A program made the translations under genes and the position numbers. This document shows, piece after piece, positions 4,275 to 18,849 of a stretch of DNA of 64,000 bases (positions are counted from its first letter, which is position 1; each line of letters begins with the position of its first letter). The notes under the pieces are model-generated. The model worked only from the letters and a program-made list of their open reading frames with translations. It was not told where the DNA came from and did no database searches. The stretch is from NCBI GenBank assembly GCA_024404195.1, contig JAKSQJ010000002.1, positions 9,661 to 73,660 on the forward strand, given 5' to 3'. The DNA comes from Clostridia bacterium. Its GTDB lineage: Bacteria; Bacillota; Clostridia; Oscillospirales; Acutalibacteraceae.

Positions 4275-4303
4275 TTGACAAAATGCAAAATAGGTGTTAA
4301 TAT
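4275..4303 (+). promoter_or_regulatory. SigmaA-type promoter P1 (TTGACA-17-TAATAT)
   Basis: TTGACA at 4275-4280, a 17-nt spacer, and TAATAT at 4298-4303, directly upstream of T-box leader 1. Confidence 0.6.
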
Positions 4304-4309
4304 GGTTAA

Positions 4310-4590
4310 AATAATAAATGCGATGAAGATATTAAGCTTTGCTTTTATTGCTTTTCAGAGAGTCGGCGGCAGGTGAAAGCCGATAGGTCAGAAGCAAGGC
4401 ATCTCACATCTGAGCAGGAAGCCGGAAATTTAAGTATGGCTTTCCGGGTGAGCCCGTAACAGCTCGGGAGCTTGTTTGAGCTTCTTTGAGAGGTTGACAC
4501 CGTGCAACAATGTGGGTGGTACCGTGGTTAATTTTTTGTTAATCATCCCGCAGAAAGTTTAGGACTTTCTGCGGATTTTTCTTTTTTCGG
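4310..4590 (+). promoter_or_regulatory. T-box riboswitch leader 1, specifier CUC (Leu)
   Basis: The K-turn is UGC-GAU-GA ... GA-GCA. The AG bulge is AGAGAG and the distal loop is GGUGAAA. The specifier loop reads CUC-A (4403-4406), followed by CAUCU-GA-GCA. The T-box sequence AAUGUGGGUGGUACCGUGG lies at 4508-4526. The terminator CCGCAGAAAGU/ACUUUCUGCGG plus a U-run lies at 4547-4587. Confidence 0.85.
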
Positions 4591-4600
4591 AGGTATTGTT

Positions 4601-5983
4601 ATGAGAAAAATTAAGATTATTGACTATTCCTTAAAAGCGCTTAGCGACAAAAACTTGCTATTCAGGGAAAAGACGGCTATTGCCGAAAATGTGGATAATT
4701 TCGGGGTTGACGCAATAGAGCTTCCCGCCGCTCAAAACATCAAGGAAGATGCCATAATTTACGGAACAATATCCTCGGTTGCTCAAAACAGTGAAATTTG
4801 TCTTCCCGTCGGCTTTGACGAGGAGAAAATCGGCGAGGTTTTTGAGTGCATAAAGAGTGCCAAAAAGCCCTGCCTTCAGGTTGCGGTCCCCGTTTCAACA
4901 ACGACCATGGAATATACCTATCACTATAAAGCCGATAAAATGCTCAAAAAGGTTGACTCCCTTGTTAAAGCGGCAAAAAAATACTGCAAAAATATAGAAT
5001 TTGTCGCAATGGATGCAACAAGAGCCGACAAAGAATATCTTACCGAAATAATAAACACCGCAAAAAACGCAGGTGCAACGGCTGCAACCGTTTGCGACGA
5101 TGCGGGAATTATGACCCCCGAAGCTTTCGGTAATTTAATAAAAACTCTTACCGAAAAATGCGACCTGCCGATATATGTTAAGGTGTCAAACGAGCTTAAT
5201 ATGGCGGTGGCATGCGCTTACTATGCCGTTCTTTGCGGTGCGAGTGGAATAAAGGCGTCCGTTTCGGGCGAAAATGAGCTGAAAACCGCCGATATCGCCG
5301 CCGTTTTGGAGGCGCAAAAGGATGCTCTTCAAATATCCTTTAATCTTAAAACAACACAGCTTAAAAACGATATCGGTAAGCTTAAAAAGGTTGTTAAAAA
5401 AGTCCCCGAAACGAGCGAAACAAGCGCTTCGGACGACGGGCTTTTAATCAGTGCCGAAAGCACGCTTGCCGACATTGAAAAGGCGGCAAAAGCATTGGGT
5501 TATGAGCTTTCGGGCGAGGACATCGGAAAGGTTTATAAATCCCTTGTTCCTTTGTTTGAAAAAAGAACAGGTGTCGGAACAAAAGAGCTTGAAGCAATAA
5601 TAGCCATCGTGGCAAATGAGGCGCCCTCAACCTACCATCTTGACACATATAATATAAATATAAGCAATGTTTCGTCGTCTATGGCAAATGTTGTGCTTAA
5701 AAAGGACGATACTTTACTTGCCGGAATTGCAACGGGCGACGGCCCTATTGATGCCGCTTTCTTGGCTATTGAGCAGGGAACGGGACTTCATTATGAGCTT
5801 GACGGCCTTGAAATTTCGGCAGTTACCGAGGGTAAAGAGGCATTGGGCTCCGCCGTTGTCCGCCTTCGCAGCGAGGGTGTTCTCTATTCGGGAACGGGAC
5901 TTTCTTCCGATATTGTCGGAGCAAGTATAAGAGCATATATCAACGCCCTTAACAAAATCGTATATGAGGAGGGACTTGCTTGA
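4601..5983 (+). CDS. LeuA/HMGL-family protein with degenerate catalytic motifs but an intact LeuA C-terminal allosteric (dimerisation) domain
   Basis: The 460-aa protein has the overall layout of 2-isopropylmalate/citramalate synthase. DTTLRDGEQ is replaced by DYSLKALSD, and the HxHxD metal motif by VKVSNELNMAV. The C-terminal segment GDGPIDAAFLAIEQ...GTGLSSDIVGASIRAYINALNKI keeps the regulatory-domain pattern. The RBS is GGAGG. Confidence 0.7.
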   Translation: MRKIKIIDYSLKALSDKNLLFREKTAIAENVDNFGVDAIELPAAQNIKEDAIIYGTISSVAQNSEICLPVGFDEEKIGEVFECIKSAKKPCLQVAVPVSTTTMEYTYHYKADKMLKKVDSLVKAAKKYCKNIEFVAMDATRADKEYLTEIINTAKNAGATAATVCDDAGIMTPEAFGNLIKTLTEKCDLPIYVKVSNELNMAVACAYYAVLCGASGIKASVSGENELKTADIAAVLEAQKDALQISFNLKTTQLKNDIGKLKKVVKKVPETSETSASDDGLLISAESTLADIEKAAKALGYELSGEDIGKVYKSLVPLFEKRTGVGTKELEAIIAIVANEAPSTYHLDTYNINISNVSSSMANVVLKKDDTLLAGIATGDGPIDAAFLAIEQGTGLHYELDGLEISAVTEGKEALGSAVVRLRSEGVLYSGTGLSSDIVGASIRAYINALNKIVYEEGLA

Positions 5984-8427
5984 AGATAGTATTCTCAACA
6001 AAAGACCATAACGAAAAGTCCTTTGTAGAGCTTTGTAATTTTACAAAATCCTATAACTGCGCCGGTTTTGAGATTTTTGACGCAAAGAGTGAACAAAAAT
6101 ATCACAGCGACAGTATTTTCAGAAATAATCTTGTAAATGCAGGTAAAAGAAAGCTCTATAACAGAGGAATTTCCATTTCGGCGATTTCCTTTCCCTATGC
6201 GGTTGAAAGGGACGATGTTACCGCCGACCAGATATTGAGTTATGTTGATTTTGCCGTTGTTTCGGGTTGCGAAAATGTTATTCTTTTTATAGAAAATGAG
6301 CCCGATATTGAAAAGTTGACGGAAAAACTCGCTTTGGCGGTAAAAAAGGCGGAGGATAACGATATTTCCGTTCTTTTTGAAACAAAAAATTACCTTTCAA
6401 ATTCAAAAAACATCCTTAAAATAATAAACCATATTTCAAGCGCCGCTTTGGGTGCCGCCTGGAATATAAGAGAAACATATTTTGAGGCAAAAGAAACCGC
6501 CGACGAAACGATAGGAATTTTAGGCGCTTATATAAAATATGTGCGTTTAGGTGACCGAAAAGACGGCGTAAATACCCTTATAGGTCAGGGAAAATTACCG
6601 TTTGACGAGTTTTTGGATGCTTTGGCTTCGCTTAATTACGATTCTTTCGTTTGCGCTCTTTGGAATGACGAAATTACTGATGCGGATATTGTTATAACGC
6701 ATTTTGTAAACTTTATTTCCAGTGTTAAAGACGAGCGGAAAAATGCTAAAAAACTCTATTATAACCGTGATAAAAGCGGAACATTTCCGTATAAAAAATA
6801 TACCGTTGTAGATAAAACTTTTCCCCAAGTTCTTGATGATATGGTGGAATGTTATCCCGACCAATATGCCTTTAAGTATTCAACCCTCCAATATAAGAGG
6901 ACTTACAGCGAATTTCGTAAAGATGTTGATAAGGTTGCGGCGGCGCTTATTTCAATAGGTGTAAAGCCGGGGCATCATGTTGCGGTTTGGGCAACCAATG
7001 TTCCCGAATGGTTTTTAACCTTCTGGGCGGCAACAAAAATCGGCGCCGTTTTGGTTACCGTTAATACCGCTTATCGCATAAACGAGATTGAATATCTTTT
7101 GAGGCAGTCGGATACCCATACCCTTGTTATGATAGAAAACTGCAAGGATATTAACTACGGCGAAATAATAAGTGAGCTTTGCCCCGAGCTTAAAACCCTT
7201 AAAGCCGGTGAGCATTTATACAGTAAAAAACTGCCCTTCCTTAAAAATGTCATTACCGTCGGCTTTGATATGGCAGGTTGCCTTAATTGGAACAAGTTTT
7301 TGCTTCGTGCCGACAGTATTCCAAAAGCGGAGGTAAACAGGCGTGCCGCTATGGTTAAGCCCGACGATGTTGCGAATATGCAATATACATCGGGAACAAC
7401 CGGCTTCCCGAAGGGCGTTATGCTTACCCACCGAAACATTATAAATAACGGCAAGATAATAGGCGACCGTATGGACCTTTCAACCGCCGAGCGCATGATG
7501 ATTCAGGTGCCGATGTTCCATTGCTTCGGAATGGTGCTTTCAATGACATCAATGATGACTCACGGCGGAACATTATCACCGCTCCCCTATTTTTCGCCGA
7601 AGTCATCTCTTGCTTGCATAAACGCCGAAAAGATTACCTGCTTTAACGGTGTTCCAACTATGTTTATTGCGATGTTCTCTCACGAGGACTTCAAAAAAAC
7701 CGATTTTTCATATATGAGAACGGGTATTATGGCAGGGTCTAACTGCCCTCCCGAGCTTATGAAAAAGGCGGCAAAGGAAATGAATATGCGAGAAATCCTT
7801 TCGGTTTACGGTCAAACCGAGGCGTCCCCCGGTTGCACTATGGGCGAGGTAAACGAGGATTTGGAGCATAGAACAGAAACCGTCGGAAGTGCTTTTCCGC
7901 TTATTGAATGCAAAATCATTGACCCCGAAACGGGCGAGGATTTGCCGAACGGTCAAAGCGGCGAATTTGTTGTCCGTGGCTTTAATGTTATGAAGGGCTA
8001 TTATAAAATGCCCGCCGCAACAAAACAGGCGATTGATAAGGAAGGTTGGCTCCATTCGGGCGACCTTTGTATGAAAACCGAGGACGGCTATTATAAGGTA
8101 ACGGGCCGTCTTAAGGATATGATTATCCGAGGCGGAGAAAACATCTATCCCCGTGAAATTGAGGAATTTTATTTAACCCATGAAAAGATAAGGGATGTTC
8201 AGGTTGTCGGCGTTAAGGACGAAAGATACGGCGAAGAAGCATGTGCATTCATTATATTAAAGGAAAACGAAACCTCAACCGAAGCCGAAATGCGAGAGTT
8301 CGGTATGAAGCATATAGCAGGTCATAAGGTCCCCCGATATTTTGTATTTACCGATAGTTTCCCGATGAACGCCGCAGGAAAAATCTTAAAATACAAAATG
8401 AAGGAAGATTTTGAGAAAAATCTTTAA
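5980..8427 (+). CDS. Fusion protein: xylose-isomerase-like TIM-barrel domain + AMP-forming acyl-CoA ligase (FadD-like)
   Basis: An 815-aa ORF. Its TTG start overlaps the upstream stop (TTGA) and has a GAGGAGG RBS. The N-terminal ~245 aa resemble sugar-phosphate isomerase/epimerase TIM barrels. The C-terminal part has AMP-binding motifs YTSGTTGFPKGVMLTH, YGQTE, SGDLCMKTEDGYYKVTGRLKD and a terminal AAGKILK. Confidence 0.8.
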   Translation: MKIVFSTKDHNEKSFVELCNFTKSYNCAGFEIFDAKSEQKYHSDSIFRNNLVNAGKRKLYNRGISISAISFPYAVERDDVTADQILSYVDFAVVSGCENVILFIENEPDIEKLTEKLALAVKKAEDNDISVLFETKNYLSNSKNILKIINHISSAALGAAWNIRETYFEAKETADETIGILGAYIKYVRLGDRKDGVNTLIGQGKLPFDEFLDALASLNYDSFVCALWNDEITDADIVITHFVNFISSVKDERKNAKKLYYNRDKSGTFPYKKYTVVDKTFPQVLDDMVECYPDQYAFKYSTLQYKRTYSEFRKDVDKVAAALISIGVKPGHHVAVWATNVPEWFLTFWAATKIGAVLVTVNTAYRINEIEYLLRQSDTHTLVMIENCKDINYGEIISELCPELKTLKAGEHLYSKKLPFLKNVITVGFDMAGCLNWNKFLLRADSIPKAEVNRRAAMVKPDDVANMQYTSGTTGFPKGVMLTHRNIINNGKIIGDRMDLSTAERMMIQVPMFHCFGMVLSMTSMMTHGGTLSPLPYFSPKSSLACINAEKITCFNGVPTMFIAMFSHEDFKKTDFSYMRTGIMAGSNCPPELMKKAAKEMNMREILSVYGQTEASPGCTMGEVNEDLEHRTETVGSAFPLIECKIIDPETGEDLPNGQSGEFVVRGFNVMKGYYKMPAATKQAIDKEGWLHSGDLCMKTEDGYYKVTGRLKDMIIRGGENIYPREIEEFYLTHEKIRDVQVVGVKDERYGEEACAFIILKENETSTEAEMREFGMKHIAGHKVPRYFVFTDSFPMNAAGKILKYKMKEDFEKNL

Positions 8428-8437
8428 AAATTACCAC

Positions 8438-8466: not shown

Positions 8467-8472
8467 TTATCA

Positions 8473-8752
8473 GTAAATTGAATACCTATCAAACAAAAGC
8501 TATGATGAAGACGGAAAATTTATTGTAAAGCTTTTAGAGAGTCGGGGACGGTGGAAGCCCGACAGCCGGATATTTTTTCTTATCACTTCTGAGCCGAAAG
8601 GACGAAACAGCAGTAGTTCTTTCCGTGTGGGCTACGTTAACGCATACGACTTGTTAGAGTCTGAGGGGCACAGTTTTGTGCAATTTGAGTGGTAACGCGG
8701 GTTTAATTTTTAACTCGTCTCAAGGTTTCTTGGGACGGGTTTTATTTATTTT
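8473..8752 (+). promoter_or_regulatory. T-box riboswitch leader 2, specifier AUC (Ile)
   Basis: The AG bulge is AGAGAG and the distal loop is GGUGGAA. The specifier loop reads AUC-A (8582-8585), followed by CUUCU-GA-GC. The T-box sequence CAAUUUGAGUGGUAACGCGG lies at 8681-8700. The terminator CGUCUCAAG/CUUGGGACG plus a U-rich tail lies at 8714-8752. Confidence 0.85.
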
Positions 8753-8764
8753 CGGAGGTAATTT

Positions 8765-11032
8765 ATGAGCACACAAAATCCCATGTCGCAACTTTTGGAT
8801 ATTGCTTTTCGTATTAGAGAAATGCGAGAAATTATGGGTTATTCCGTCGCCGAAATGGCGGAAAAAACCGAGGTTTCCGTTGAGCAATACGAAAATTACG
8901 AAAACTGCAAAACCGATTTGCCTTTTACATTTGTTCATAAATGCGCACTTGTTTTCGGAATTGAGCTTACCGAACTTTTAGAGGGCAGAAGCGCCAAGCT
9001 TTCTTCCTATACCGTAACAAGAAAGGGCAACGGTCAGCAAACCGCCAAGGAAGACGGTATTGATATTGCAAACTTAGCACCCGAATTCAGAAATAAAATA
9101 GCCGAGCCATACTGGGTTAAGTATGATTATTCCGAGGAGCTTCAAAATAAGCCCATTCATTTAACTAACCACAGCGGTCAGGAATTTGACCTTGTTGTTT
9201 CGGGCTCTTTGATGGTGCAGGTAGGCACAAATACCGAAATTCTTAACGAGGGCGACAGTATTTACTATAATTCTTCAACACCTCACGGTATGATAGCCGT
9301 CGGCGGAAAGGATTGCGAATTTTTGGCAGTTGTTCTTCCGGGCGAGGACGAGCAGGAGGAAACTATCCGCACAAGTATTGCCGCCGCAAAACCCTCTAAA
9401 AAGTTGCTTTGCGAAAAATTCGTTAAGACAACCGAGGACGAAAACGGCGCTTTGCAGGATATTAAATTCGTTGATACCGATAAGTTTAATTTCGGCTTTG
9501 ATGTTGTTAATGCTATCGCAAATAAATACCCCGATAAGCTTGCGATGGTGCATATTGACAGAAACAAGAGGGAAAGACAGTTTACCTTTGACGATATAAA
9601 GAGAGAGTCGGCAAGATGCGCTAACTATTTTACAACTATGGGCATCAAAAAGGGCGACAAAGTAATGCTTGTTCTCAAAAGGCATTATCAGTTCTGGTTT
9701 GCTATGGTAGCACTTCATAAAATCGGCGCCGTCGCAATTCCCGCAACATTCTTACTTAAAGAGCACGATTTTGAGTATAGATTTAATGCCGCCGAAATTT
9801 CGGCTATTGTCTGCACTGCCGACGGCGATGTTGCCGAAATTGCCGAAAAAGCCGCAAAAAAATGCAAAACCGTTAAAACCAAAATCATGGTTGGCGGAAA
9901 TAGAGACGGTTGGCACGATTTTGATAATGAATATAAGGTTTATTCAAGCCATTTCCGCAGAAGTGCCGATACTCCCTGCGGTGATGACCCTGCAATCATC
10001 TTCTTCTCCTCGGGAACAACGGGCGAGCCAAAAATGGTTGAACATTCTCATACCTATCCGTTAGGTCATTTCGTAACCGCTAAATATTGGCATTGTTGCG
10101 AAAGGGACGGTCTTCACTTCACCATTTCCGACACCGGTTGGGGTAAATCCCTTTGGGGAAAACTTTACGGACAGTGGCTTTGCGAGGGTGCCGTATTTGT
10201 TTATGACTTTGACCGCTTTGACGCTTCTGATATTTTGCCGATGTTCAAAAAGTATAATGTTACAACATTCTGCGCTCCCCCTACCATGCTTCGTATGATG
10301 GTAAAAGAAGACCTTACAAAATATGATTTTTCGTCTGTTAAGCATATGACAACCGCAGGCGAGGCGCTTAATCCCGAGGTTGCAAAGCAGTTTAAGGAAG
10401 CAACCGGACTTACGATTTATGAGGGCTTCGGTCAAACCGAAACCACCCTTACGGTTGCAAATCTTGGCGGAACAAGGACAAAAATCGGCTCAATGGGCAA
10501 ACCTTCTCCGCAATATGAAATTGACATTGTTGACCATGACGATAAGCCGGTCGCAAACGGCGAAACGGGCGAAATCGTTATAAAACTTCAAAACGGCAAC
10601 CCCGTCGGTCTTTTCAGACAATACCTAAAAGAGCCCGAAAAAACCAAAGAGGTAAGAAGAAACAACCTTTATCATACGGGCGATACCGCTTGGCGAGATG
10701 AATCGGGATATTTTTGGTATGTCGGCAGGGTTGACGATATTATTAAATCGTCAGGTTACCGTATAGGGCCGTTTGAAATTGAAAATGTTATTATGGAGCT
10801 TCCGTATGTTCTTGAATGCGGTGTTTCCGCCGAGCCCGACGAAATAAGGGGTCAGATTGTTAAGGCAAGTATCGTTTTAACAAAGGGAACAAAGCCGAGC
10901 GAAGAACTCAAAAAGGAAATCCAGAATTATGTTAAGAGCCATACTGCTCCTTATAAATATCCCCGTCTTGTTGTGTTTAAGGACGAGCTTCCGAAAACCA
11001 ATAACGGAAAAATAATGCGCAGTTTACTGTAA
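8765..11032 (+). CDS. Fusion protein: XRE-family HTH + cupin domain + medium-chain (ACSM/MacS-like) AMP-forming acyl-CoA synthetase
   Basis: A 755-aa ORF. The N-terminus (IREMREIMGYSVAEMAEKTEVSVEQYENYE) is HTH_3-like. The cupin core is HSGQEFDLVVSGSLMVQVG...GDSIYYNSSTPHGM. The synthetase part has FFSSGTTGEPKMVEHSH, EGFGQTET, YHTGDTAWRDESGYFWYVGRVDD and a terminal NNGKIMR. Confidence 0.85.
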   Translation: MSTQNPMSQLLDIAFRIREMREIMGYSVAEMAEKTEVSVEQYENYENCKTDLPFTFVHKCALVFGIELTELLEGRSAKLSSYTVTRKGNGQQTAKEDGIDIANLAPEFRNKIAEPYWVKYDYSEELQNKPIHLTNHSGQEFDLVVSGSLMVQVGTNTEILNEGDSIYYNSSTPHGMIAVGGKDCEFLAVVLPGEDEQEETIRTSIAAAKPSKKLLCEKFVKTTEDENGALQDIKFVDTDKFNFGFDVVNAIANKYPDKLAMVHIDRNKRERQFTFDDIKRESARCANYFTTMGIKKGDKVMLVLKRHYQFWFAMVALHKIGAVAIPATFLLKEHDFEYRFNAAEISAIVCTADGDVAEIAEKAAKKCKTVKTKIMVGGNRDGWHDFDNEYKVYSSHFRRSADTPCGDDPAIIFFSSGTTGEPKMVEHSHTYPLGHFVTAKYWHCCERDGLHFTISDTGWGKSLWGKLYGQWLCEGAVFVYDFDRFDASDILPMFKKYNVTTFCAPPTMLRMMVKEDLTKYDFSSVKHMTTAGEALNPEVAKQFKEATGLTIYEGFGQTETTLTVANLGGTRTKIGSMGKPSPQYEIDIVDHDDKPVANGETGEIVIKLQNGNPVGLFRQYLKEPEKTKEVRRNNLYHTGDTAWRDESGYFWYVGRVDDIIKSSGYRIGPFEIENVIMELPYVLECGVSAEPDEIRGQIVKASIVLTKGTKPSEELKKEIQNYVKSHTAPYKYPRLVVFKDELPKTNNGKIMRSLL

Positions 11033-11039
11033 AAAACTG

Positions 11040-11074: not shown

Positions 11075-11356
11075 ATAAAGGCAAAGACGAAGAGGACTTT
11101 ATTATTCCGAAATTTAGAGAGATAACGGTTGGTGAAAGTTATCGGTAGGGTAATTTGGTTGTAACTTCTGAGCTGAAGGGAAGAAAGCATTTTTGCAAGT
11201 AGAGCCCTTTCGTGTAGGCTGCGTTAATGCATACGGCTTGTTAGAGCCTGAGTGGCACTTTTTTGTGCAATTTGAGTGGTACCGCGGGTGTATTTTGATA
11301 TTTTTTACGCTCGTCTCAAAGTATTAAGCTTTGGGACGGGTGTTTTTTCGTTTTTT
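11075..11356 (+). promoter_or_regulatory. T-box riboswitch leader 3, specifier GUA (Val)
   Basis: The AG bulge is AGAGAG and the distal loop is GGUGAAA. The stem AGAGG/CUUCU closes the specifier loop, which reads GUA-A (11161-11164), followed by CUUCU-GA-GC. The T-box sequence CAAUUUGAGUGGUACCGCGGG lies at 11268-11287. The terminator CGUCUCAAAG/CUUUGGGACG plus a U-run ends near 11356. The 3' half is clearly paralogous to leader 2. Confidence 0.85.
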
Positions 11357-11378: not shown

Positions 11379-13667
11379 ATGCAAGAAATAAGCAATCTTG
11401 ATTATAAAATCAAGGAAATGGCGGGGCGTATTAAAGAGCTTCGTGAAATTGAGGGCGTTTCTCCCGAAGAAATGGCTCAAAAAACCGATGTTTCCGTCAG
11501 TGAATACCTTTCCTGCGAAAGCGGAGAAAGCGACTTAAACTTTGCATTTCTTTACCGTTGCGCATTGGCGCTTAATGTCAATGTTACCGATATAATTGAG
11601 GGTCACAGTCCTACCCTTAAGGCATTTACCGTTACAAAAAAAGGCAAGGGTCAGGAAATTGCGAATGCTCACGGTATGACATATTACAATATGGCTTATG
11701 CTTTCAAAAACAGAATTGCCGAGCCGCTTTATGTTAAATCAAATTACGACGAATCAGCCCAAACGAAAGAAATTGAGCTTACAACCCATGAGGGACAGGA
11801 GCTTGATATTATAATTTCTGGTCAGCTTCGTGTTCAGATAGGTGAGCATAGCGAGGTTTTAAGCGAGGGCGACAGTGTTTACTTTAATTCCTCAACCCCC
11901 CACGGTATGATAGCCGTCGGCGGTAAGGACTGCGAGTTTTATGCCATTGTCCTTAATCCTACGGGGGAACCCATTCCCGAGCTTATTCCGACAAAGGCGA
12001 TTGAGTTTGAAAAGGAAGTAAAGCAGGATACAAGCGACAGAGTTTACCGCAAGTATGTTGATATCGTTAAAAACGATAAGGGAACACCTACATCAATTAA
12101 ATTTAAGAACACAGATAAGTTTAACTTTGCCTTTGATGTTGTTGACGAAATGGCAAACAAAAACCCGAATAAACTCGCCATGCTTCATATTGACCGCAAC
12201 GAAACAGAGAGAAGATTTACCTTCCTTGATATGAAGAAAGAGTCGGCAAGATGCGCAAACTATTTCAGTTCTTTGGGAATTAAAAAGGGCGACAGAGTTA
12301 TGCTTGTTTTAAGGCGTAATTATCAGTTTTGGCCCATAATGTTAGGCCTTAATAAGTTGGGCGCTATTGCAATTCCCGCAACAAGCCAACTTCTTCCGCA
12401 TGACCTTGAATACAGATTTGATAAGGCGGGAGTTACCTCTATTGTCTGCACTTCGGACGATAATTCCCCCGATTCCGCCGACACTGCCGCCGCTACATAC
12501 GGTAAAATGAAAAACAAGATTATCGTAGGCGGTAAAAGAGACGGTTGGAGAGAATTTGATAAAGAATATAAGCGCTTCAGCTCAACCTATGAGCGAACAA
12601 AGGATTCTCCCTGCGGCGATGACCTTCTTCTTATGTTCTTTACTTCGGGAACTTCGGGTTATCCGAAAATTGCCGCTCATAACCATAAATATCCTTTCGG
12701 ACATTTTGTTACGGCTAAATATTGGCATTGCTGCGACCCCGACGGACTTCATTTTACAATTTCCGATACGGGCTGGGCTAAGGCAATGTGGGGCAAGCTT
12801 TACGGTCAGTGGTTCTGCGAAGCCGCAACCTTTGTTTATGACTTTGACCGTTTTGATGCATCAAAGATAATGCCGATGTTCGCAAAGCATAAAATAACAA
12901 CCTTTTGCGCTCCGCCTACTATGCTTCGTATGATGATAAAGCAGGATTTATCAAATTATGATTTTTCGTCCGTTAAGCATATGACAACCGCAGGCGAGGC
13001 ACTTAACCCCGAGGTTTATAAGCAATTTAAGAATTTGACGGGACTTCATATTATTGAGGGCTTCGGTCAAAGCGAATCTACCATGATGATAGGCAATCTT
13101 CGTGGCGCTCCGCATAAAATCGGCTCAATGGGTAAACCCTGCCCGATTTATGATATTGACCTTTTGGACAGCGACGGTAACCCCGTTGCCATCGGTGAAA
13201 CGGGCGAAATTTGCGTAAATGTTAAAAACGGTGCGCCCTGCGGACTGTTTACCGGTTACTATAACGACCCCGAAAAGACCGACGAGGCAATTCACGACGG
13301 TTATTACCATACCGGCGATACCGCTTGGAAGGACGAGGACGGTTTCTATTGGTTTGTCGGCAGAGTTGACGATGTTATTAAATCATCGGGCTACCGTATA
13401 GGACCCTTTGAAATAGAAAGCGTTATTATGGAGCTTCCCTATGTTCTTGAATGCGGCGTTTCCCCCGAGCCCGATGAAATAAGGGGACAAATTGTTAAAG
13501 CAAGTATTGTTTTAACAAAGGGAACTAAGCCGACCGAGGAACTTAAAAAAGAAATCCAAAACTATGTTAAACAGCATACCGCTCCTTATAAATACCCCCG
13601 TCTTGTTGTGTTCAGAGATGAACTTCCGAAAACAACAAGCGGTAAGATAATGCGAAATAAGCTTTAA
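11379..13667 (+). CDS. Fusion protein: XRE-family HTH + cupin domain + medium-chain AMP-forming acyl-CoA synthetase (paralog of 8765..11032)
   Basis: I prefer the ATG at 11379 (RBS AGGAGG) over the TTG at 11331, which lies inside the T-box terminator. The domain order matches the upstream paralog and the C-terminal ~90 aa are nearly identical. Motifs present are FFTSGTSGYPKIAAHNH, EGFGQSES and YHTGDTAWKDEDGFYWFVGRVDD. Confidence 0.85.
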   Translation: MQEISNLDYKIKEMAGRIKELREIEGVSPEEMAQKTDVSVSEYLSCESGESDLNFAFLYRCALALNVNVTDIIEGHSPTLKAFTVTKKGKGQEIANAHGMTYYNMAYAFKNRIAEPLYVKSNYDESAQTKEIELTTHEGQELDIIISGQLRVQIGEHSEVLSEGDSVYFNSSTPHGMIAVGGKDCEFYAIVLNPTGEPIPELIPTKAIEFEKEVKQDTSDRVYRKYVDIVKNDKGTPTSIKFKNTDKFNFAFDVVDEMANKNPNKLAMLHIDRNETERRFTFLDMKKESARCANYFSSLGIKKGDRVMLVLRRNYQFWPIMLGLNKLGAIAIPATSQLLPHDLEYRFDKAGVTSIVCTSDDNSPDSADTAAATYGKMKNKIIVGGKRDGWREFDKEYKRFSSTYERTKDSPCGDDLLLMFFTSGTSGYPKIAAHNHKYPFGHFVTAKYWHCCDPDGLHFTISDTGWAKAMWGKLYGQWFCEAATFVYDFDRFDASKIMPMFAKHKITTFCAPPTMLRMMIKQDLSNYDFSSVKHMTTAGEALNPEVYKQFKNLTGLHIIEGFGQSESTMMIGNLRGAPHKIGSMGKPCPIYDIDLLDSDGNPVAIGETGEICVNVKNGAPCGLFTGYYNDPEKTDEAIHDGYYHTGDTAWKDEDGFYWFVGRVDDVIKSSGYRIGPFEIESVIMELPYVLECGVSPEPDEIRGQIVKASIVLTKGTKPTEELKKEIQNYVKQHTAPYKYPRLVVFRDELPKTTSGKIMRNKL

Positions 13668-13677: not shown

Positions 13678-14400
13678 ATGAAAATATCGGTTATTCAAAT
13701 GGATGTTAAGCTTAATGCTCCCGATATTAACTTTAATAAGGCGAAAAAACTTATCAAAGAAGCGGTAAGTGAGGACCCCGATGTAATCGTTTTGCCCGAA
13801 ACCTTTAATGTCGGCTTTTTTCCGAAGGATATAAAAAGGGAATTTTGCGATATTGACGGAAAAAGGGTAAAAGAAGAAATCGGAAAACTTGCAAAAGAGT
13901 ATAATGTTAATATCGTTGCCGGCTCTGTTGCGAACATAAAAAACGGTAATCTTTATAATACCGCCTATGTTTTTTCAAGGTCGGGCGAGCAAATAGCCGA
14001 ATACGATAAAATCAATTTGTTTTCGGCTATGGACGAGGATAAATACTTTAATAAGGGCGATAAAACCGTTCGTTTTTATCTTGACGGGCATCCCTGCACA
14101 CTTATTATTTGCTATGATATCCGCTTCCCCGAAATTATAAGAAAAGCAACGGCAAATGAGCCGACTGACCTTTTGTTTATCTTATCCGAATGGCCGAAAG
14201 TCAGAATAAACGAACTAACCGCTCTTGTTACCGAAAGGGCAACGGAAAACAGAATGTTTGCCGTTTGCTCAAACTCCTGCGGAAAGGCAAACGATGTAAA
14301 ATATGGCGGAAATTCGGTTATTGTTGACCCGCTCGGCAATATTCTCATAAAAGCAGAAGAAACCGAAAGCATCATAACCGCAAACTGCGATATACAATAA
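13678..14400 (+). CDS. Carbon-nitrogen hydrolase (Nit/omega-amidase, YafV/MtnU-like)
   Basis: A 240-aa ORF. The E-K-C triad context is visible: VLPETFN, YDKINLF and LIICYDIRFPE. The start lies 10 nt after the upstream stop, so the gene is co-transcribed. Confidence 0.75.
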   Translation: MKISVIQMDVKLNAPDINFNKAKKLIKEAVSEDPDVIVLPETFNVGFFPKDIKREFCDIDGKRVKEEIGKLAKEYNVNIVAGSVANIKNGNLYNTAYVFSRSGEQIAEYDKINLFSAMDEDKYFNKGDKTVRFYLDGHPCTLIICYDIRFPEIIRKATANEPTDLLFILSEWPKVRINELTALVTERATENRMFAVCSNSCGKANDVKYGGNSVIVDPLGNILIKAEETESIITANCDIQ

Positions 14401-14420
14401 ATTTTAAGTAGGAATAAACA

Positions 14421-15092
14421 ATGCGAGATTATAAGCGACTTACAATAATATGCGGACATTACGGAAGCGGTAAAACAAATATCGCCGTAAATATGGCGTT
14501 AGAGCTTTGCAAAATCCGTGAAAATGTTGCCGTTGCCGACCTTGATATTGTTAATCCTTATTTCAGAACAAAGGACAGCGAGGAAGATTTTAAGGCAAAC
14601 GGAATAAAACTTATTTGTTCGCAGTTTGCAAATACAAATCTTGATTTACCGTCGCTTCCTGCCGATTTATATTCAATAACCGATGATAAGGAAACCTCGG
14701 TTATTCTTGATATCGGCGGTGATGACAGGGGTGCTTTTGCTTTGGGCAGATTAAGCCCCGAAATAATCAAAGAAAATAACTATGATATGTATTATGTCAT
14801 CAATAAATACCGTCCCTTAACTCCCGATGCCGAGTCGGCTTATGAGATAATGCTTGAAATTGAAGCGGCTTGCGGAATTAAGTTTACGGGAATTCTCAAC
14901 AACTCAAATTTGGGCTCGCAAACTTCGGCGGAAGATGTTCTTAATTCTTTGGAGTTTGCGGATAGATTATCCGAAATTTCTTCTTTGCCTGTTAAAGCCA
15001 CCTGCATAGAAAAACGGCTTGAAGACGAGCTTAAAGATAAAATTCCAAACTTGTTTTCAATGAAATTGCAAAACAAAATAATAGACGGTTAA
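14421..15092 (+). CDS. P-loop NTPase of unknown function, UreG/HypB (G3E)-like motif pattern
   Basis: A 223-aa ORF with Walker A GHYGSGKTN, a Walker B-like VILDIGGDDRG (compare UreG ESGGDNL) and INKY at the position of NKxD. Confidence 0.5.
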   Translation: MRDYKRLTIICGHYGSGKTNIAVNMALELCKIRENVAVADLDIVNPYFRTKDSEEDFKANGIKLICSQFANTNLDLPSLPADLYSITDDKETSVILDIGGDDRGAFALGRLSPEIIKENNYDMYYVINKYRPLTPDAESAYEIMLEIEAACGIKFTGILNNSNLGSQTSAEDVLNSLEFADRLSEISSLPVKATCIEKRLEDELKDKIPNLFSMKLQNKIIDG

Positions 15093-15184
15093 TAAACCGA
15101 TTATTGTGTTAAAAATTTTGAGGACTTGACAGCGAAATGTTGCCTTAGCTCTTAAAAGTATATAAATTGAAAGGAAAGATGATT

Positions 15185-15391
15185 ATGGCTAAACTTACTT
15201 TTAAAACAGATAATTGTAAGGGCTGCGGACTTTGCGTTGATGCTTGTCCGAAAAATCTGTTGCTTTTGGCGCAGGACAAAATAAACAAAAAGGGACATCA
15301 TCCTGTTGAAATTTCAAATATGGATGAATGCATAGGTTGCGCTTCCTGCGCTGTTATGTGCCCCGACTGTATAATAAAGGTAGAAAGGTGA
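15185..15391 (+). CDS. 2-oxoacid:ferredoxin oxidoreductase delta subunit (2x[4Fe-4S] ferredoxin)
   Basis: Two CxxCxxCxxxCP motifs are present (CKGCGLCVDACP and CIGCASCAVMCP). The start is uncertain: ATG at 15185, 15179, or TTG at 15167. Confidence 0.8.
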   Translation: MAKLTFKTDNCKGCGLCVDACPKNLLLLAQDKINKKGHHPVEISNMDECIGCASCAVMCPDCIIKVER

Positions 15392-15397
15392 TAAATT

Positions 15398-16465
15398 ATG
15401 GCAGACAAGGTTCTTATGAAAGGTAACGAAGCGATAGCCGAAGCCGCTATAATCGCCGGTTGCCGTCACTATTTCGGATATCCGATTACACCGCAAACCG
15501 AGGTTGCCGCATATATGGCAAAGAAGATGCCGAAAATCGGCGGAACATTTTTGCAGGCAGAAAGCGAAATTGCGGCTATCAGTATGGTTTACGGCGTATC
15601 CTCGGCAGGATACAGAGTTATGACCTCTTCTTCATCCCCCGGAATATCCTTAAAGCAAGAGGGAATATCCTATCTTGCTGGTTCCGACCTTCCGGCACTT
15701 ATTGTTAATGTTCAAAGAGGCGGTCCCGGACTCGGCGGTATTCAACCCTCTCAGTCGGATTATTTTCAGGCAACAAAGGGCGGCGGACACGGCGACTATC
15801 ATTTGATAGTTTTGGCTCCTGCCTCCGTTCAGGAAATGGCAGAGCTAACAATAAAGGGTTTTGACCTTGCCGATAAATACAGAATGCCGACAATGCTCCT
15901 TGCCGACGGCACTATGGGACAAATGATGGAGCCGGTATCTCTTGATGAGTATTCCGACATTAAAACATTTGATAAGCCCTGGGCAACCAACGGAACAAAG
16001 ATGAACAGAGAACATAATATTACAAACTCTTTGTCGCTCGTTCCCGAAGAACTTGAACAGTTGAATATAGCAAGATATGAGCGTTATAAAATTGTTGAAG
16101 AAAACGAAACCATGTATGAAGAATACTATATGGATGATGCCGAAATCTGCATTGCGGCTTTCGGTATTGCGGCAAGAGTTTCGCTCCATGCAGTAGAAAA
16201 GGCAAGAAAAGAAGGCATAAAGGTCGGTATGATAAGACCTATAACTCTTTGGCCGTTCCCGAGCGCACCGTTCAAAAAAGCGGCTCCGCATCTTAAACAC
16301 ATTATGTCGGTAGAGCTTTCTATGGGACAGATGATAGAGGATGTTAAACTCGCTTGTGAATGTTGTTGCCCTGTAACCCTTTGCAACCGTGTCGGCGGTA
16401 TGATTCCCGACCCGTTGCAGGTTCTTGAAAGAATTAAAGAAGTCAATAAGGAGGTAAACGGATAA
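15398..16465 (+). CDS. 2-oxoacid:ferredoxin oxidoreductase alpha subunit (VorB/KorA type)
   Basis: A 355-aa ORF. The N-terminus MKGNEAIAEAAIIAGCRHYFGYPITPQTE is typical of OFOR alpha subunits. The gene is followed by coupled beta and gamma genes. Confidence 0.85.
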   Translation: MADKVLMKGNEAIAEAAIIAGCRHYFGYPITPQTEVAAYMAKKMPKIGGTFLQAESEIAAISMVYGVSSAGYRVMTSSSSPGISLKQEGISYLAGSDLPALIVNVQRGGPGLGGIQPSQSDYFQATKGGGHGDYHLIVLAPASVQEMAELTIKGFDLADKYRMPTMLLADGTMGQMMEPVSLDEYSDIKTFDKPWATNGTKMNREHNITNSLSLVPEELEQLNIARYERYKIVEENETMYEEYYMDDAEICIAAFGIAARVSLHAVEKARKEGIKVGMIRPITLWPFPSAPFKKAAPHLKHIMSVELSMGQMIEDVKLACECCCPVTLCNRVGGMIPDPLQVLERIKEVNKEVNG

Positions 16466-17229
16466 TGGTAGTATTTGAAAAACCGCACGCACTAATTGAT
16501 GTGCCGCTTCATTATTGTCCGGGTTGTACTCACGGTATAGTGCATAGATTGGTAGCCGAAGTAATAGACGAATTAGGCATTGAAGGTCAAACCATAGGTA
16601 TAGCACCTGTTGGCTGTTCCGTTATGGCTTATAATTATTTTAATTGCGATATGATAGAGGCGGCTCACGGCAGAGCACCGGCAGTTGCTACCGGCGTTAA
16701 GCGAGCAGACCCCGATAACAATATCGTATTCACCTATCAGGGTGACGGCGACTTGGCATCCATCGGAACTGCCGAAACAGTTCACGCCGCCGCAAGAAAC
16801 GAAAATATAACCATAATCTTTATAAATAACGCAATTTACGGTATGACCGGCGGTCAAATGGCTCCTACCTCGCTTCCCGGTCAGATAACCCAGACCTCTC
16901 CCTACGGCAGAGACCCGAAGCTTTGCGGTTATCCGATTAAGGTTTGCGAAATGCTTTCCGAACTTGACGGCCCCGAATATTTAGAGCGTGTTGCCGTAAA
17001 TAATGTTAAGAATGTAAGAAATGCCAAAAAAGCCATTAAAAAGGCGTTCCAAAATCAGATAGATAAAAAGGGATTTTCTCTTGTAGAGGTTATTTCAACC
17101 TGCCCGACCAACTGGGGACTTACTCCTAAAAAGGCTCTTGAATGGGTTGACGAAAAGATGATTCCGTATTATCCGCTCGGCGTTTATAAGGATAGAAGCG
17201 CCGCACAGGACGAAAAGGAGGAAGGTTAA
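16465..17229 (+). CDS. 2-oxoacid:ferredoxin oxidoreductase beta subunit (TPP-binding)
   Basis: A 254-aa ORF with YCPGCTHG and the GDGD...NNxxYGMTGGQ TPP-binding motif. It has a TAATG overlap with the alpha gene. Confidence 0.85.
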   Translation: MVVFEKPHALIDVPLHYCPGCTHGIVHRLVAEVIDELGIEGQTIGIAPVGCSVMAYNYFNCDMIEAAHGRAPAVATGVKRADPDNNIVFTYQGDGDLASIGTAETVHAAARNENITIIFINNAIYGMTGGQMAPTSLPGQITQTSPYGRDPKLCGYPIKVCEMLSELDGPEYLERVAVNNVKNVRNAKKAIKKAFQNQIDKKGFSLVEVISTCPTNWGLTPKKALEWVDEKMIPYYPLGVYKDRSAAQDEKEEG

Positions 17230-17766
17230 ATGACTTCGCAGTTTTTGTTTTCCGGTTTCGGCGGACAGGGTATCTTGTTCGCAGGTAAATTTATGTCATA
17301 TAAGGGTATGACAGACGGTAAAAATGTATCATGGCTTCCCTCTTACGGCCCCGAAATGAGAGGCGGTACCGCAAGTTGCAGCGTTGTTGTCAGAGATAAG
17401 CCTATCGGCTCGCCGATAGTTGCTTTCCCCGATACTCTTATTGCTATGAATCTTCCGTCGCTTGATAAGTTTGAAGATTCAGTTCAGGAGGGCGGAACAA
17501 TATTTATTGATTCAACCCTTGTTGAAAGAAAGGTAAAGAGGGATGATGTAAATGTTTATTACATCCCTGCTACCAAGCTTGCAAACGATAATGGTATGCC
17601 TACTCTTGCAAATATGATTATCGTAGGCAAAATTCTTAAAGTCAGAAACGAATTTAACGAGGAAAGCATTAAAGCGGCTCTCGGAAAGGTTGTTTCCGCA
17701 AAGCATGCAGATTTATTTGATGTAAACCTTAAAGCATTACAAATCGGCGCTTCTTATGAGGGCTGA
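17230..17766 (+). CDS. 2-oxoacid:ferredoxin oxidoreductase gamma subunit
   Basis: A 178-aa [15 protein letters not shown] near the N-terminus is typical of OFOR gamma subunits. The start directly abuts the beta stop. Confidence 0.85.
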
Positions 17767-17787
17767 TACTGAAAGGAAGAGTTTTTT

Positions 17788-18849
17788 ATGGAAATTAAAA
17801 TTATCAAAAAGCAAAATCCTACCTTAAAGCCGGGCGAAGAATACGGCTTCGGACGAGTATTTACCGACCATATGTTTGTTATGGATTATGACAGCGAAAA
17901 CGGTTGGCATGATGCCCGTATAGTTCCGTTTGACAGAATTTCAATCCATCCTGCATCAACCGTTCTTCACTACGGCGCAGAAATATTTGAGGGACTTAAA
18001 GCATATAGGCGTGCCGACGGCGGCGTTCAGCTTTTCAGACCTATTGAAAATATCCGCCGTATGAACAACTCGGCCGAGCGTCTTTGCTTACCGCAGATTG
18101 ACGAAGATATGGCTATGGATATCCTTACAACCTTTATTTCTCACGAAAAAGAGTGGACTCCGTCCGACCCCGGCACTACACTTTACATCCGTCCGTTTAT
18201 GTATGGTAACGATGAACAGCTCGGTGTTCATGCCGTAAAGCATGCAACCTTTATGATAATCGCATCACCTACCGGAAGCTACTATAAGCAGGGCTTCCAG
18301 CCGGTTCGCATTATGATAGAAGATACCGATGTCCGAGCAGTTCGCGGCGGAACAGGTTATGCTAAATGCGGCGGTAACTATGCCGCAAGCACCCGTGCAG
18401 GCGAAAAGGCAGAACAGCAGGGCTATTCTCAGGTTCTTTGGCTTGACGGTGTTGAACATAAGTATGTTGAAGAAGTAGGCGCTATGAATGTTATGTTCAA
18501 GATTAACGGCGAGATAGTAACTCCGGCGCTTACCGGTTCTATTCTTCCGGGTGTTACAAGAAAGTCATGCGTTGAGGCTCTTAAGAAAGAGGGTTACACC
18601 GTAAACGAGCGCCTTTTGAGCATTGACGAGTTAGCAGAAGCTATGAAAAACGGCACCTTAGAGGAAGCTTGGGGTTGCGGAACTGCCGCAGTTATTTCAC
18701 CGATTGGCGAGCTTTGCTATAAGGGTGTTAAATATGCAATTAACGACGGTAAGATAGGTCCTGTTACCCAGCACCTTTACGATAAGCTTACCGGTATTCA
18801 GTGGGGCAGAGTTGAGGACGAGTTCGGTTGGACTTATCCGATTGACTGA
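17788..18849 (+). CDS. ilvE: Branched-chain amino acid aminotransferase
   Basis: A 353-aa fold-type IV aminotransferase. Motifs seen are EGLKAYR, TGYAKCGGNYAAS, EEVGAMNVMF and LPGVTRKS. Confidence 0.85.
   Translation: MEIKIIKKQNPTLKPGEEYGFGRVFTDHMFVMDYDSENGWHDARIVPFDRISIHPASTVLHYGAEIFEGLKAYRRADGGVQLFRPIENIRRMNNSAERLCLPQIDEDMAMDILTTFISHEKEWTPSDPGTTLYIRPFMYGNDEQLGVHAVKHATFMIIASPTGSYYKQGFQPVRIMIEDTDVRAVRGGTGYAKCGGNYAASTRAGEKAEQQGYSQVLWLDGVEHKYVEEVGAMNVMFKINGEIVTPALTGSILPGVTRKSCVEALKKEGYTVNERLLSIDELAEAMKNGTLEEAWGCGTAAVISPIGELCYKGVKYAINDGKIGPVTQHLYDKLTGIQWGRVEDEFGWTYPID

Follow-up and report, generated by a model that had tools for sequence, protein, structure and literature searches.

The window, the whole 64,000-nucleotide stretch of DNA analysed here, comes from a gut Clostridia genome and carries a conserved gene cluster that most likely turns branched fermentation acids back into branched-chain amino acids (BCAA). 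From its sequence, the locus was read as a starvation-induced route that would rebuild Leu, Ile and Val from branched short-chain acids, and this reading was considered probable. If it is true, isovalerate, 2-methylbutyrate and isobutyrate, all products of fermentation, are returned to Leu, Ile and Val with built-in sensors. No published description of such a locus was found in the literature. An earlier note on this DNA had outlined the route; its observations were partly confirmed overall, and its interpretation was supported, as every in silico test run pointed the same way.

Locus layout, promoters and T-box leaders

The elements lay on the plus strand in the order promoter P1, Leu T-box, pseudo-LeuA gene, TIM-ligase gene, promoter P2, Ile T-box, ligase gene, promoter P3, Val T-box, ligase gene, amidase gene, P-loop NTPase gene, vorDABG and ilvE. 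Inside the chained units, the T-box terminators were the sole terminators, so vor and ilvE stand behind the Val gate only. The idea that each branch has its own T-box thus held for the ligases and failed for vor and ilvE. The third unit ended, as had been noted, at a strong terminator; this was a bidirectional intrinsic terminator with a 19-bp stem (18865..18906), common to the convergent metH operon.

A search of the species-level genome collection met relatives of the HTH-cupin ligase in at least 575 stretches. The layout was compared in 80 related species-level loci, from Acutalibacteraceae/Oscillospiraceae gut and rumen MAGs, and was conserved among them. The arrangement of Ile ligase, Val ligase, P-loop NTPase, vorDABG and ilvE was thus kept across at least 80 species-level genomes.

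Three strong sigma-A-type promoters, one for each T-box leader, were found as first described, all with a TTGACA box and 17-nt spacing. P1 (4275..4303, TTGACA-17-TAATAT with a TG extension) had a TTGACA/extended -10 layout that was kept upstream of 27 orthologous Leu leaders. P2 (8438..8466, TTGACA-17-TACAAT with a TG extension) began 11 nt past the stop codon of the Leu-unit ligase, and P3 (11040..11068, TTGACA-17-TATACT) began 8 nt past that of the Ile-unit ligase. No operator for the ligase HTH was found near the promoters.

The search with Rfam RF00230 (gathering score 93) agreed with the claim of three complete T-box leaders. Leader 1 (4314..4585) and leader 2 (8493..8750) gave full-model matches above the gathering score, at 4314-4553 (112.4 bits) and 8493-8725 (102.6 bits). 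Leader 3 (11075..11352) matched at 11075-11321 with 86.8 bits (E 1.8e-19), below the gathering score; the full model was nevertheless covered in local search, and the orthologous Val leaders in loci L050, L001 and L013 passed the gathering score. The model alignment and the sequence agreed on the specifiers that had been read before: CUC (Leu) at 4403-4405, AUC (Ile) at 8582-8584 and GUA (Val) at 11161-11163, each followed by A. The leaders were accordingly predicted to read tRNA-Leu (codon CUC), tRNA-Ile (AUC) and tRNA-Val (GUA). The T-box sequence of leader 1 included UGGU. The leader terminators were located at 4548-4574 (followed by a T-run), 8712-8741 and 11307-11343.

The 80 orthologous loci held 171 T-boxes with conserved specifiers, which is more than chance. 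An AUC leader preceded 78 of the 80 Ile-type ligases, all 62 leaders of Val-type ligases read GUA (60) or GUC (2), and 24 of 27 Leu units had a CUC leader. The Rfam cross-check on the orthologous loci agreed with this coupling. Specifier and ligase paralogue go together almost without exception. As each paralogue is tied to one specifier, this in silico pairing independently supports the proposal of the earlier note that each amino acid has its own ligase. Leaders 2 and 3 shared 70.6% identity, which points to a tandem duplication with a subsequent specifier switch.

The three ligases and their additional domains

A ligase directly followed leaders 2 and 3, as had been stated; behind leader 1 a LeuA-like ORF came first and the ligase was the second gene. 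The three ligases had been described as AMP-forming acyl-CoA ligases, but none was a plain ligase: all carried an additional N-terminal region of ~220-280 aa (a TIM barrel, or an HTH plus a cupin). The LeuA-like gene, the TIM-ligase fusion and the HTH-cupin domains had been missed.

Pfam analysis showed that the Ile-unit ligase (8765..11032) consisted of an XRE-type HTH, a cupin and a Macs/MbcS-like acyl-CoA synthetase; its sequence was identical to MCQ2450508.1, annotated as 'AMP-binding protein'. The Val-unit ligase (11379..13667) had the same HTH, cupin and Macs/MbcS-like domains (Pfam, NCBIfam) and shared 62% identity with its paralogue, the Ile ligase. Its true start was ATG 11379, since the mechanical ORF start at 11331 falls inside the leader 3 terminator. 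The best NCBIfam match of both was MbcS (Ile ligase: 450 bits, equivalog cut-off 850), and both ligase domains were 52% identical to Macs of M. acetivorans (PDB 3ETC; E 3e-186 for the Ile ligase). Conserved positions specific to either the Ile or the Val paralogue numbered 21. The HTH-cupin region contained 16 of them (p about 8e-6); the remaining 5 were a few to ~20 residues from the AKYW pocket motif, with one further downstream.

These two closest relatives are branched short-chain acyl-CoA synthetases characterised by experiment: Macs prefers 2-methylbutyrate (PMC10455477), and MbcS acts selectively on 2-methylbutyrate and isobutyrate and makes poor use of isovalerate (PMC10026030). From the homology to Macs (52%) and the T-box labels, we propose that the Ile-unit enzyme is a 2-methylbutyrate-CoA ligase and the Val-unit enzyme an isobutyrate-CoA ligase.

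The first gene of the Leu unit (4601..5983) encoded a LeuA-like protein of 460 aa with Pfam HMGL-like and LeuA_dimer matches, which fell below every NCBIfam cut-off and is a 'hypothetical protein' at NCBI. Both the window protein and the orthologues aligned with it had lost the RDGEQ, HxH and GERAGN motifs and carried a deletion of the catalytic subdomain, in a test that included an internal positive control. The C-terminal LeuA_dimer regulatory domain was kept at full length with conserved GDGPIDA and EGKEALG motifs. By sequence, the protein is a pseudoenzyme, a DRE-TIM barrel without catalytic motifs, and is proposed to be a leucine sensor.

The TTG start of the Leu-unit ligase (5980..8427; Pfam AP_endonuc_2, AMP-binding and AMP-binding_C) overlapped the TGA stop of the LeuA-like gene. 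Residues 1-~255 formed a TIM barrel in the structure model, and residues ~273-815 an AMP-forming acyl-CoA ligase. The barrel was xylose-isomerase-like (AF2 model pLDDT 91, Foldseek matches) and is degenerate, keeping just 1 of 4 canonical metal ligands. The best NCBIfam match of the protein was PRK12583 (655 bits), again under the equivalog cut-off (832), and no close characterised relative of the ligase domain was found. Sequence places the domain in an ANL subfamily other than Macs/MbcS. The weak use of isovalerate by MbcS fits a Leu unit having another ligase family, and we propose that the enzyme is an isovalerate-CoA ligase.

Two additional conserved domains in the Leu unit are neither needed nor explained by this simple route. 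It is conceivable, although unlikely, that the proposal is right for the Ile and Val units but that the Leu unit does not simply activate isovalerate; its TIM barrel and LeuA-like protein would then take part in another catalytic route that yields a Leu precursor, or act on a different acid. The LeuA-like gene and the TIM-ligase were strictly co-inherited and translationally coupled, the ligase domain stands apart from characterised enzymes, and the TIM domain had many invariant polar residues (including E31, H42, D44, R57, R62, E134, N162, R164, E172 and D192), which suggest a real ligand or active site. However, the LeuA-like protein had no catalytic motif of its superfamily and the barrel had lost most of its metal ligands; isovalerate needs just a ligase and the common VOR and IlvE to become Leu, and the substrate range of MbcS-type enzymes already explains the different ligase family.

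VOR, IlvE and the accessory genes

Pfam and NCBIfam bore out the gene content given before for the third unit. The four-subunit 2-oxoacid:ferredoxin oxidoreductase of VOR type (15185..17766; Pfam Fer4, POR_N/PFOR_II, TPP_enzyme_C and POR) comprised the delta subunit with 2x[4Fe-4S] (15185-15391), the alpha subunit (15398-16465; NCBIfam VorB, 539 bits, cut-off 399), the beta subunit (16465-17229) and the gamma subunit (17230-17766). The branched-chain amino acid aminotransferase IlvE (17788..18849; TIGR01123) passed its NCBIfam equivalog cut-off (NF009897, 467 bits vs 307).

The CN_hydrolase (nitrilase-superfamily) amidase (13678..14400, Pfam) had conserved presumed catalytic Glu, Lys and Cys residues (PETF, YDK and CYD contexts); its second-best NCBIfam match was PRK10438 'amidohydrolase' (101 bits vs 249). 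The amidase is not a constant part of the locus: of the 80 loci only 6 had it, in 5 directly upstream of ilvE and in the sixth as a 29%-identity match upstream of the Ile ligase gene. It is proposed to be an omega-amidase removing 2-oxoglutaramate.

The P-loop NTPase (14421..15092) was of the SIMIBI class, with weak Pfam CbiA and ParA matches; Foldseek matched its AF2 model to SRP GTPases, HypB, MinD and CooC at TM about 0.5. A search for conserved Cys in this protein found none. In every one of 61 loci, vorD was the next gene downstream of the NTPase gene, and the product is proposed to be, probably, a VOR assembly or maturation factor.

Direction of the route and comparison with known systems

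In the proposed route, neighbouring protein fermenters would supply the branched short-chain acids. Uncharged cognate tRNA would let the antiterminator form and the ligase be made; the Ile-type, Val-type and Leu-unit ligases would then activate 2-methylbutyrate, isobutyrate and isovalerate, respectively. The VOR-type enzyme, with reduced ferredoxin and CO2, would convert the acyl-CoAs into the three 2-oxoacids by reductive carboxylation, and IlvE would transaminate these to Leu, Ile and Val. Should glutamine donate the amino group, the amidase may pull the transamination by clearing 2-oxoglutaramate. As vor and ilvE follow the Val leader, starvation for Leu or Ile only would not obviously induce them. 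A second layer of control is likely. A presumed ligand-sensing module accompanies each ligase: HTH-cupin for Ile and Val, and for Leu the dead LeuA with its intact Leu-regulatory domain and the degenerate TIM barrel. Such modules would be consistent with the end product acting back on the committed step, and possibly with DNA binding.

The ligases might instead scavenge branched acids as FabH starters for membrane lipids, as MbcS does in S. aureus, with the T-boxes reporting scarce BCAA-derived primers and amino-acid synthesis secondary or absent. The best match of the Ile and Val ligases, MbcS, has a demonstrated role in branched-chain fatty acid synthesis, which it makes possible from exogenous 2-methylbutyrate and isobutyrate (PMC10026030). 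A few loci (L044, L069, L076 and L079) had an Ile ligase without adjacent vor, and in L069 it adjoined an AMP-binding/PP-binding protein and an acyltransferase. However, among the 54 loci with sufficient downstream sequence, 50 had vor, with the ligases co-directional with and directly upstream of vorDABG, and usually ilvE also. For a cell short of Val, inducing an oxidoreductase and a transaminase is sensible only if both run in the synthetic direction, and primer supply needs no three separate amino-acid-specific gates; the lipid-primer explanation is quite improbable.

T-box induction on starvation and AMP-forming activation favoured the biosynthetic direction, in line with the earlier note. 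That IlvE and VOR oxidise BCAA to acyl-CoA for energy metabolism is very improbable: both enzymes are reversible, and VOR-type enzymes run oxidatively in hyperthermophilic archaea and proteolytic clostridia, but T-boxes respond to scarcity of the amino acid by turning genes on, AMP-forming ligases spend ATP on acyl-CoA and conserve no energy, and the Pfam/NCBIfam scan found no ADP-forming acyl-CoA synthetase, phosphotransacylase or kinase in the locus.

The biosynthetic route resembles the reductive carboxylation by which, in classical tracer work, rumen and gut anaerobes (ruminococci, Prevotella/Bacteroides and Megasphaera) made BCAA from branched-chain volatile fatty acids. The proposed steps (acid to acyl-CoA, ferredoxin-dependent 2-oxoacid synthase, transamination) and the habitat are the same, and the taxa with the locus belong to the Oscillospirales, an order that includes the classical ruminococci. 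That pathway was established through labelling rather than genes, whereas this locus offers a complete conserved gene set, three ligases labelled by T-box specifiers, and sensor domains. The ilv-leu operon of B. subtilis, which serves all three BCAA behind a single tRNA-Leu T-box, is similar in its T-box control of BCAA supply and in placing common enzymes behind one amino acid's leader; it differs in de novo synthesis from pyruvate and in having one leader, where this locus has three serial leaders of different specificity in one co-directional array.

At the protein level, the Ile and Val ligases share with MbcS/Macs a homologous catalytic domain with a conserved AKYW pocket tryptophan context, and the alpha-branched C4/C5 acid substrates of MbcS/Macs match the Ile and Val labels. 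Unlike MbcS/Macs, they are extended at the N terminus by ~220 aa of HTH and cupin, come under T-box control and would pass their products to a VOR/IlvE operon; MbcS serves lipid synthesis, and its equivalog cut-off was not reached by the window ligases. The LeuA-like protein has the HMGL-like TIM-barrel fold family and LeuA_dimer of 2-isopropylmalate synthase (LeuA), and its gene, like many leuA genes, follows a Leu T-box; the protein differs from LeuA in the missing motifs and catalytic subdomain. Trigger enzymes are enzyme-regulator fusions such as BirA and PutA. Like BirA, the Ile and Val ligases are adenylate-forming enzymes fused to a putative DNA-binding HTH, which suggests by analogy that catalysis is coupled to gene control; unlike BirA and PutA, they combine an XRE-type HTH with a cupin sensor.

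T-box leaders and organization of the locus

The locus occupies 4275-18906 of the window. The Rfam covariance check that the earlier note had proposed for its three T-box leaders gave full-model matches to RF00230 for all of them. Leader 1 (Leu, 4314-4553) scored 112.4 bits and leader 2 (Ile, 8493-8725) scored 102.6 bits, both over the full-length model and above the gathering score of 93 bits. Leader 3 (Val, 11075-11321) was found in a local search at 86.8 bits, below the gathering score, with an E-value of 1.8e-19 over the full model. This deficit was mainly due to an 18-nt insertion in the antiterminator loop, and orthologues of leader 3 in the loci L050, L001 and L013 of other species passed the gathering score with 110.2, 98.4 and 94.2 bits, respectively.

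The specifiers previously read as CUC, AUC and GUA were recovered at the model-aligned position in leaders 1, 2 and 3 as CUC-A (4403-4406), AUC-A (8582-8585) and GUA-A (11161-11164), the purine after each specifier being A; UGGU was present in all three T-box sequences. Near-consensus promoters lay ahead of the leaders at 4275-4303, 8438-8466 and 11040-11068, as had been described. Terminator hairpins with a T-run were located at 4548-4574, 8712-8741 and 11307-11343, and each stem began within the 3' end of the Rfam match of its leader. The next promoter began 11 nt past the stop of the Leu-unit ligase and 8 nt past that of the Ile ligase, so the T-box terminators are the only ones inside the array. 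The strong terminator said to close the array corresponded to a 19-bp bidirectional stem at 18865-18906, common to the convergent metH/MTHFR operon. The spacer of the Val-unit promoter (11040-11068 in the window, and its orthologues) was moderately conserved beyond the extended -10, with a non-palindromic consensus of about aaAGtTgtGaTAtAAT.

An acyl-CoA ligase gene had been placed directly behind each leader. This held for leaders 2 and 3, which were followed by ligases of 755 and 762 aa (Ile and Val ligase), in both of which an XRE-type HTH and a cupin precede the AMP-binding ligase domain. Behind leader 1, a LeuA-like ORF of 460 aa (4601-5983), not mentioned in the earlier note, came first; its TGA stop was overlapped by the TTG start of the TIM-ligase (815 aa, 5980-8427), in which an AMP-binding ligase is fused to a TIM barrel of the xylose-isomerase-like type. 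The true start of the Val ligase was the ATG at 11379, which matches the public record. Aminoacyl-tRNA synthetases were ruled out as the identity of the 755-815 aa ORFs, all three being AMP-binding/ANL ligases with extra N-terminal domains. The proteins of the locus are on public record under the Clostridia MAG GCA_024500545.1, where each ligase is called 'AMP-binding protein' and the LeuA-like protein is listed as 'hypothetical protein'.

A scan with one genome per species returned at least 575 stretches with relatives of the HTH-cupin ligase, and the best 80 of these loci were mapped by tblastn and compared. All 80 came from gut or rumen MAGs, mostly labelled Acutalibacteraceae, Oscillospiraceae, Clostridia or Eubacteriales. 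Their conserved order was Ile ligase, Val ligase, an optional amidase, the P-loop gene, vorDABG and ilvE, with ilvE ahead of the P-loop gene in some loci; the LeuA-like gene and the TIM-ligase were always paired, either upstream or downstream of this core. In 54 loci the sequence continued for more than 6 kb past the Ile ligase; vor was found in 50 of these and the Val ligase in 46.

An nhmmer survey of the best 80 loci detected 171 T-boxes with a conserved specifier column, each leader preceded by a TTGACA/extended -10 promoter of its own; Rfam separately confirmed ten of these leaders, among them Val leaders at 94-110 bits. The specifier was AUC in 78/80 leaders of Ile-type ligases, GUA in 60/62 and GUC in 2/62 leaders of Val-type ligases, and CUC in 24/27 leaders of LeuA-like genes. 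The proposal of one ligase per amino acid was supported by a strict coupling of specifier and paralogue across species (AUC 78/80, GUA/GUC 62/62, CUC 24/27), which is the strongest evidence that each ligase would serve one amino acid. Leaders 2 and 3 were 70.6% identical, each being about 51% identical to leader 1, and the Ile and Val ligases were 62% identical. These identities point to a tandem duplication that gave rise to the Ile unit and the Val unit and was accompanied by a change of specifier.

Some loci departed from the common pattern. Locus L027 (JAEDOD010000052.1), binned as Sphaerochaetaceae, carried a typical Clostridia-type locus at 73% identity, which points to a binning error or horizontal transfer. 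In a few species, vor was missing behind the Ile-T-box ligase. In L076 (3771-7541), an ACT-domain/metallo-beta-lactamase protein came after this ligase. In L069 (10001-18860), the genes after it encoded an AMP-binding/PP-binding protein, an MFS transporter, an acyltransferase and a phosphopantetheinyl transferase. The acyl-CoA may have another fate in such loci.

Domain analysis of the ligases and the LeuA-like protein

The best NCBIfam family for the Ile and Val ligases was MbcS, yet the scores of 449.7 and 443.6 bits were below its cut-off of 850. The catalytic domain of both aligned with Macs of M. acetivorans (PDB 3ETC) over 522 residues at 52% identity (E 3e-186), and the context of the pocket Trp, AKYW, was conserved. 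Macs prefers 2-methylbutyrate (PMC10455477), and purified MbcS of S. aureus is selective for 2-methylbutyrate and isobutyrate, poor on isovalerate and inactive on acetate (PMC10026030). These substrates fit the Ile and Val labels that the T-boxes would give to the two ligases. The poor handling of isovalerate by MbcS-type enzymes would explain why the Leu unit uses a ligase of another subfamily.

The HTH of the Ile and Val ligases matched Pfam HTH_19 or HTH_3 above the gathering score, and Cupin_2 scored 46-49 bits against a threshold of 27. The HTH-cupin region was strongly conserved across species. Out of 21 paralogue-specific positions (same within and different between the Ile and Val families), 16 fell in the N-terminal 215 residues containing the HTH and cupin (binomial p about 8e-6); the other five lay a few to about 20 residues from AKYW, with one further downstream. 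An alignment of 166 promoter regions of the three promoter classes, anchored at the -35 box, showed conservation of the UP element, the -35 and the extended -10 only, and no conserved palindrome that could serve as an HTH operator was found in these regions.

In the LeuA-like protein of the window and its aligned orthologues, K-ALSD, KVS and GENEL stood in place of RDGEQ, HxH and GERAGN, and the subdomain with the catalytic His was deleted. In LeuA/DRE-TIM enzymes, RDGEQ supplies the substrate Arg and the metal Asp, and HxH the metal ligands. The protein scored below every NCBIfam cut-off. Its C-terminal LeuA_dimer regulatory domain (PF08502) scored 88 bits over profile positions 5-130 of 131, and the motifs of this domain were kept across orthologues. 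As an internal control, the second HMGL-like gene of the window retained all catalytic motifs. Judged from these motifs, the LeuA-like protein is a pseudoenzyme with a full-length LeuA regulatory domain. A working synthase for a leuBCD route was ruled out by the missing catalytic motifs.

The TIM domain of the TIM-ligase matched Pfam AP_endonuc_2 (47 bits, cut-off 31), and its AF2 model (pLDDT 91) showed a ketose-epimerase-like barrel. Foldseek returned only generic sugar isomerase/epimerase barrels, namely ketose 3-epimerases, UlaE and AsbF at TM 0.72-0.77. In a profile alignment with MJ1311 (3WQO), at about 15% identity and with shifts of a few residues possible, E134 was kept, and N162, Y187 and A226 stood at the other three positions of the Glu-Asp-His-Glu set, which we presume from our own mapping to be the metal ligands of MJ1311. 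The TIM domain therefore looks degenerate in this alignment, with one of four canonical metal ligands left; it nevertheless has many invariant polar residues. A sequence search for stand-alone relatives of the domain gave only fragments of the same fusion family, and a sequence search of the PDB gave no match. The ligase domain of the Leu unit had PRK12583 as its best NCBIfam match, outside the subfamily of the Ile and Val ligases, and no close solved structure was found for it. Activation of isovalerate may not be the only function of the Leu unit.

Shared enzymes, control and direction of the route

The gene content ascribed to the third unit was confirmed. After the Val ligase came, in this order, a CN_hydrolase amidase, a P-loop protein of 223 aa, a delta subunit of the 2x[4Fe-4S] type, alpha, beta and gamma subunits, and IlvE. 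Pfam assigned the four OFOR subunits as Fer4 (delta), POR_N and PFOR_II (alpha), TPP_enzyme_C (beta) and POR (gamma). The alpha subunit matched NCBIfam VorB at 538.8 bits (cut-off 399), a model of the type 'subfamily', so that the name VOR reflects annotation rather than a measured specificity. IlvE was above the equivalog cut-offs of NF009897 (466.9 versus 307 bits) and TIGR01123 (387.9 versus 250 bits).

The P-loop protein belonged to the SIMIBI class of NTPases, and both sequence and fold searches gave generic SIMIBI NTPases only. Its gene was directly upstream of vorD in 61/61 loci within the best 80 of at least 575. The most economical reading of this obligate place is that the protein acts in VOR assembly. 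A NifH/Mrp-like Fe-S role is unlikely, as no Cys was conserved. In the amidase, a putative triad that we assigned as Glu-Lys-Cys was conserved in seven sequences, and the match to NCBIfam PRK10438 'amidohydrolase' scored 101 bits, below the cut-off of 249. Within the best 80 of at least 575 loci, a close amidase match occurred in only five others, always adjoining ilvE; a sixth match was weak (29% identity) and lay upstream of the Ile ligase. Our guess is that the amidase is an omega-amidase removing 2-oxoglutaramate.

The earlier note had further proposed that each branch is gated by its own T-box. This stood for the activation step, where the three ligases are gated one by one; it did not stand for the whole route, since vor and ilvE lie behind the Val leader alone in the window. 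The Val-type ligase was missing in the loci L005, L008, L027, L049, L052 and L065, where vor/ilvE directly followed the Ile ligase behind the AUC leader, so the amino acid gating the shared enzymes differs between lineages.

The ligases may also supply lipid primers on the side, as MbcS has been shown to do; this leaves the co-induction of VOR and IlvE and the three amino-acid-specific gates unexplained. Operation of the locus in the catabolic direction conflicts with the T-box logic and with the ATP-consuming ligases. In the biosynthetic direction, isovalerate, 2-methylbutyrate and isobutyrate would be converted through their acyl-CoAs and 2-oxoacids to Leu, Ile and Val. The locus may then form an alternative, self-contained route to BCAAs under three tiers of regulation, in which the committed ligase of each branch has its own end-product or substrate sensor, a reading that we put forward tentatively and consider somewhat improbable in its full form. 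We infer from the domain architecture that the HTH-cupin, LeuA-like and TIM modules could sense ligands at the committed step of each branch. The ligands of the cupins in the Ile and Val ligases would be related to Ile or Val, and the XRE HTH would make these ligases DNA-binding 'trigger enzymes'. The catalytically dead LeuA would survive only as a leucine-binding regulatory subunit and, with the degenerate TIM barrel, would gate isovalerate activation. If this is true, an isopropylmalate synthase has been reused purely for allosteric sensing on behalf of an unrelated enzyme, of which we know no earlier case.

Relation to known pathways and neighbouring genes

[quoted passage not shown] The chemistry of the route is classical, and T-boxes are likewise well known. 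No description of T-box-regulated acyl-CoA ligases, of this locus, of the HTH-cupin-ligase fusion or of the LeuA pseudoenzyme was found in the literature searched, whose coverage was incomplete, so an earlier description is possible. CoA, ferredoxin and oxidoreductase do not occur in the text of the survey of T-box regulons from 2008, and a literature search gave no usable nutritional data for R. bromii.

The locus represents a complete, conserved candidate gene set for an old pathway in a large group of Clostridia from gut and rumen, with relatives in at least 575 stretches of the collection of one genome per species. The T-box specifiers would act as labels that predict the acid used by each ligase, making the pathway testable and allowing it to be annotated in metagenomes. 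The locus could offer a genetic handle on cross-feeding between proteolytic fermenters and Oscillospirales of the saccharolytic type, as well as on the supplementation of ruminants with isoacids. It also exposes unusual architectures, namely the HTH-cupin-ligase fusions, the LeuA pseudoenzyme and a P-loop protein apparently dedicated to VOR, and may illustrate cleanly how the specificity of a T-box switches after tandem duplication.

The flanking genes were unrelated to the locus, with a trehalase-family gene upstream on the other strand and metH downstream. The genes at 18915-23392 (minus strand) are convergent with ilvE and share its terminator. They encode a B12-dependent methionine synthase that is split into a protein of 794 aa and one of 197 aa with the activation domain, as well as MTHFR and an HTH protein of the XRE type; no riboswitch was found upstream of these genes at the Rfam gathering score.

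An operon-like cluster of four genes was located at 39490-44625 (minus strand). It comprised an HMGL-like synthase (43204-44625) with intact catalytic motifs and without LeuA_dimer, a GntR/FCD regulator, an aconitate hydratase (PRK07229, 968 versus 612 bits) and a protein of the isocitrate/isopropylmalate-dehydrogenase family. The cluster could pass wrongly for leuA-leuCD-leuB. Its aconitase and Iso_dh genes were rejected as leuCDB, and we read the cluster as a Re-citrate-synthase/aconitase/ICDH branch making 2-oxoglutarate.

At 25882-29143 (minus strand), an N6/N4 DNA methylase (26547-27737) adjoined a 222-aa ORF without a Pfam match and a protein with KaiC/AAA_25, DnaB_C and ChlI-type domains, which we take to be RadA/Sms-like.
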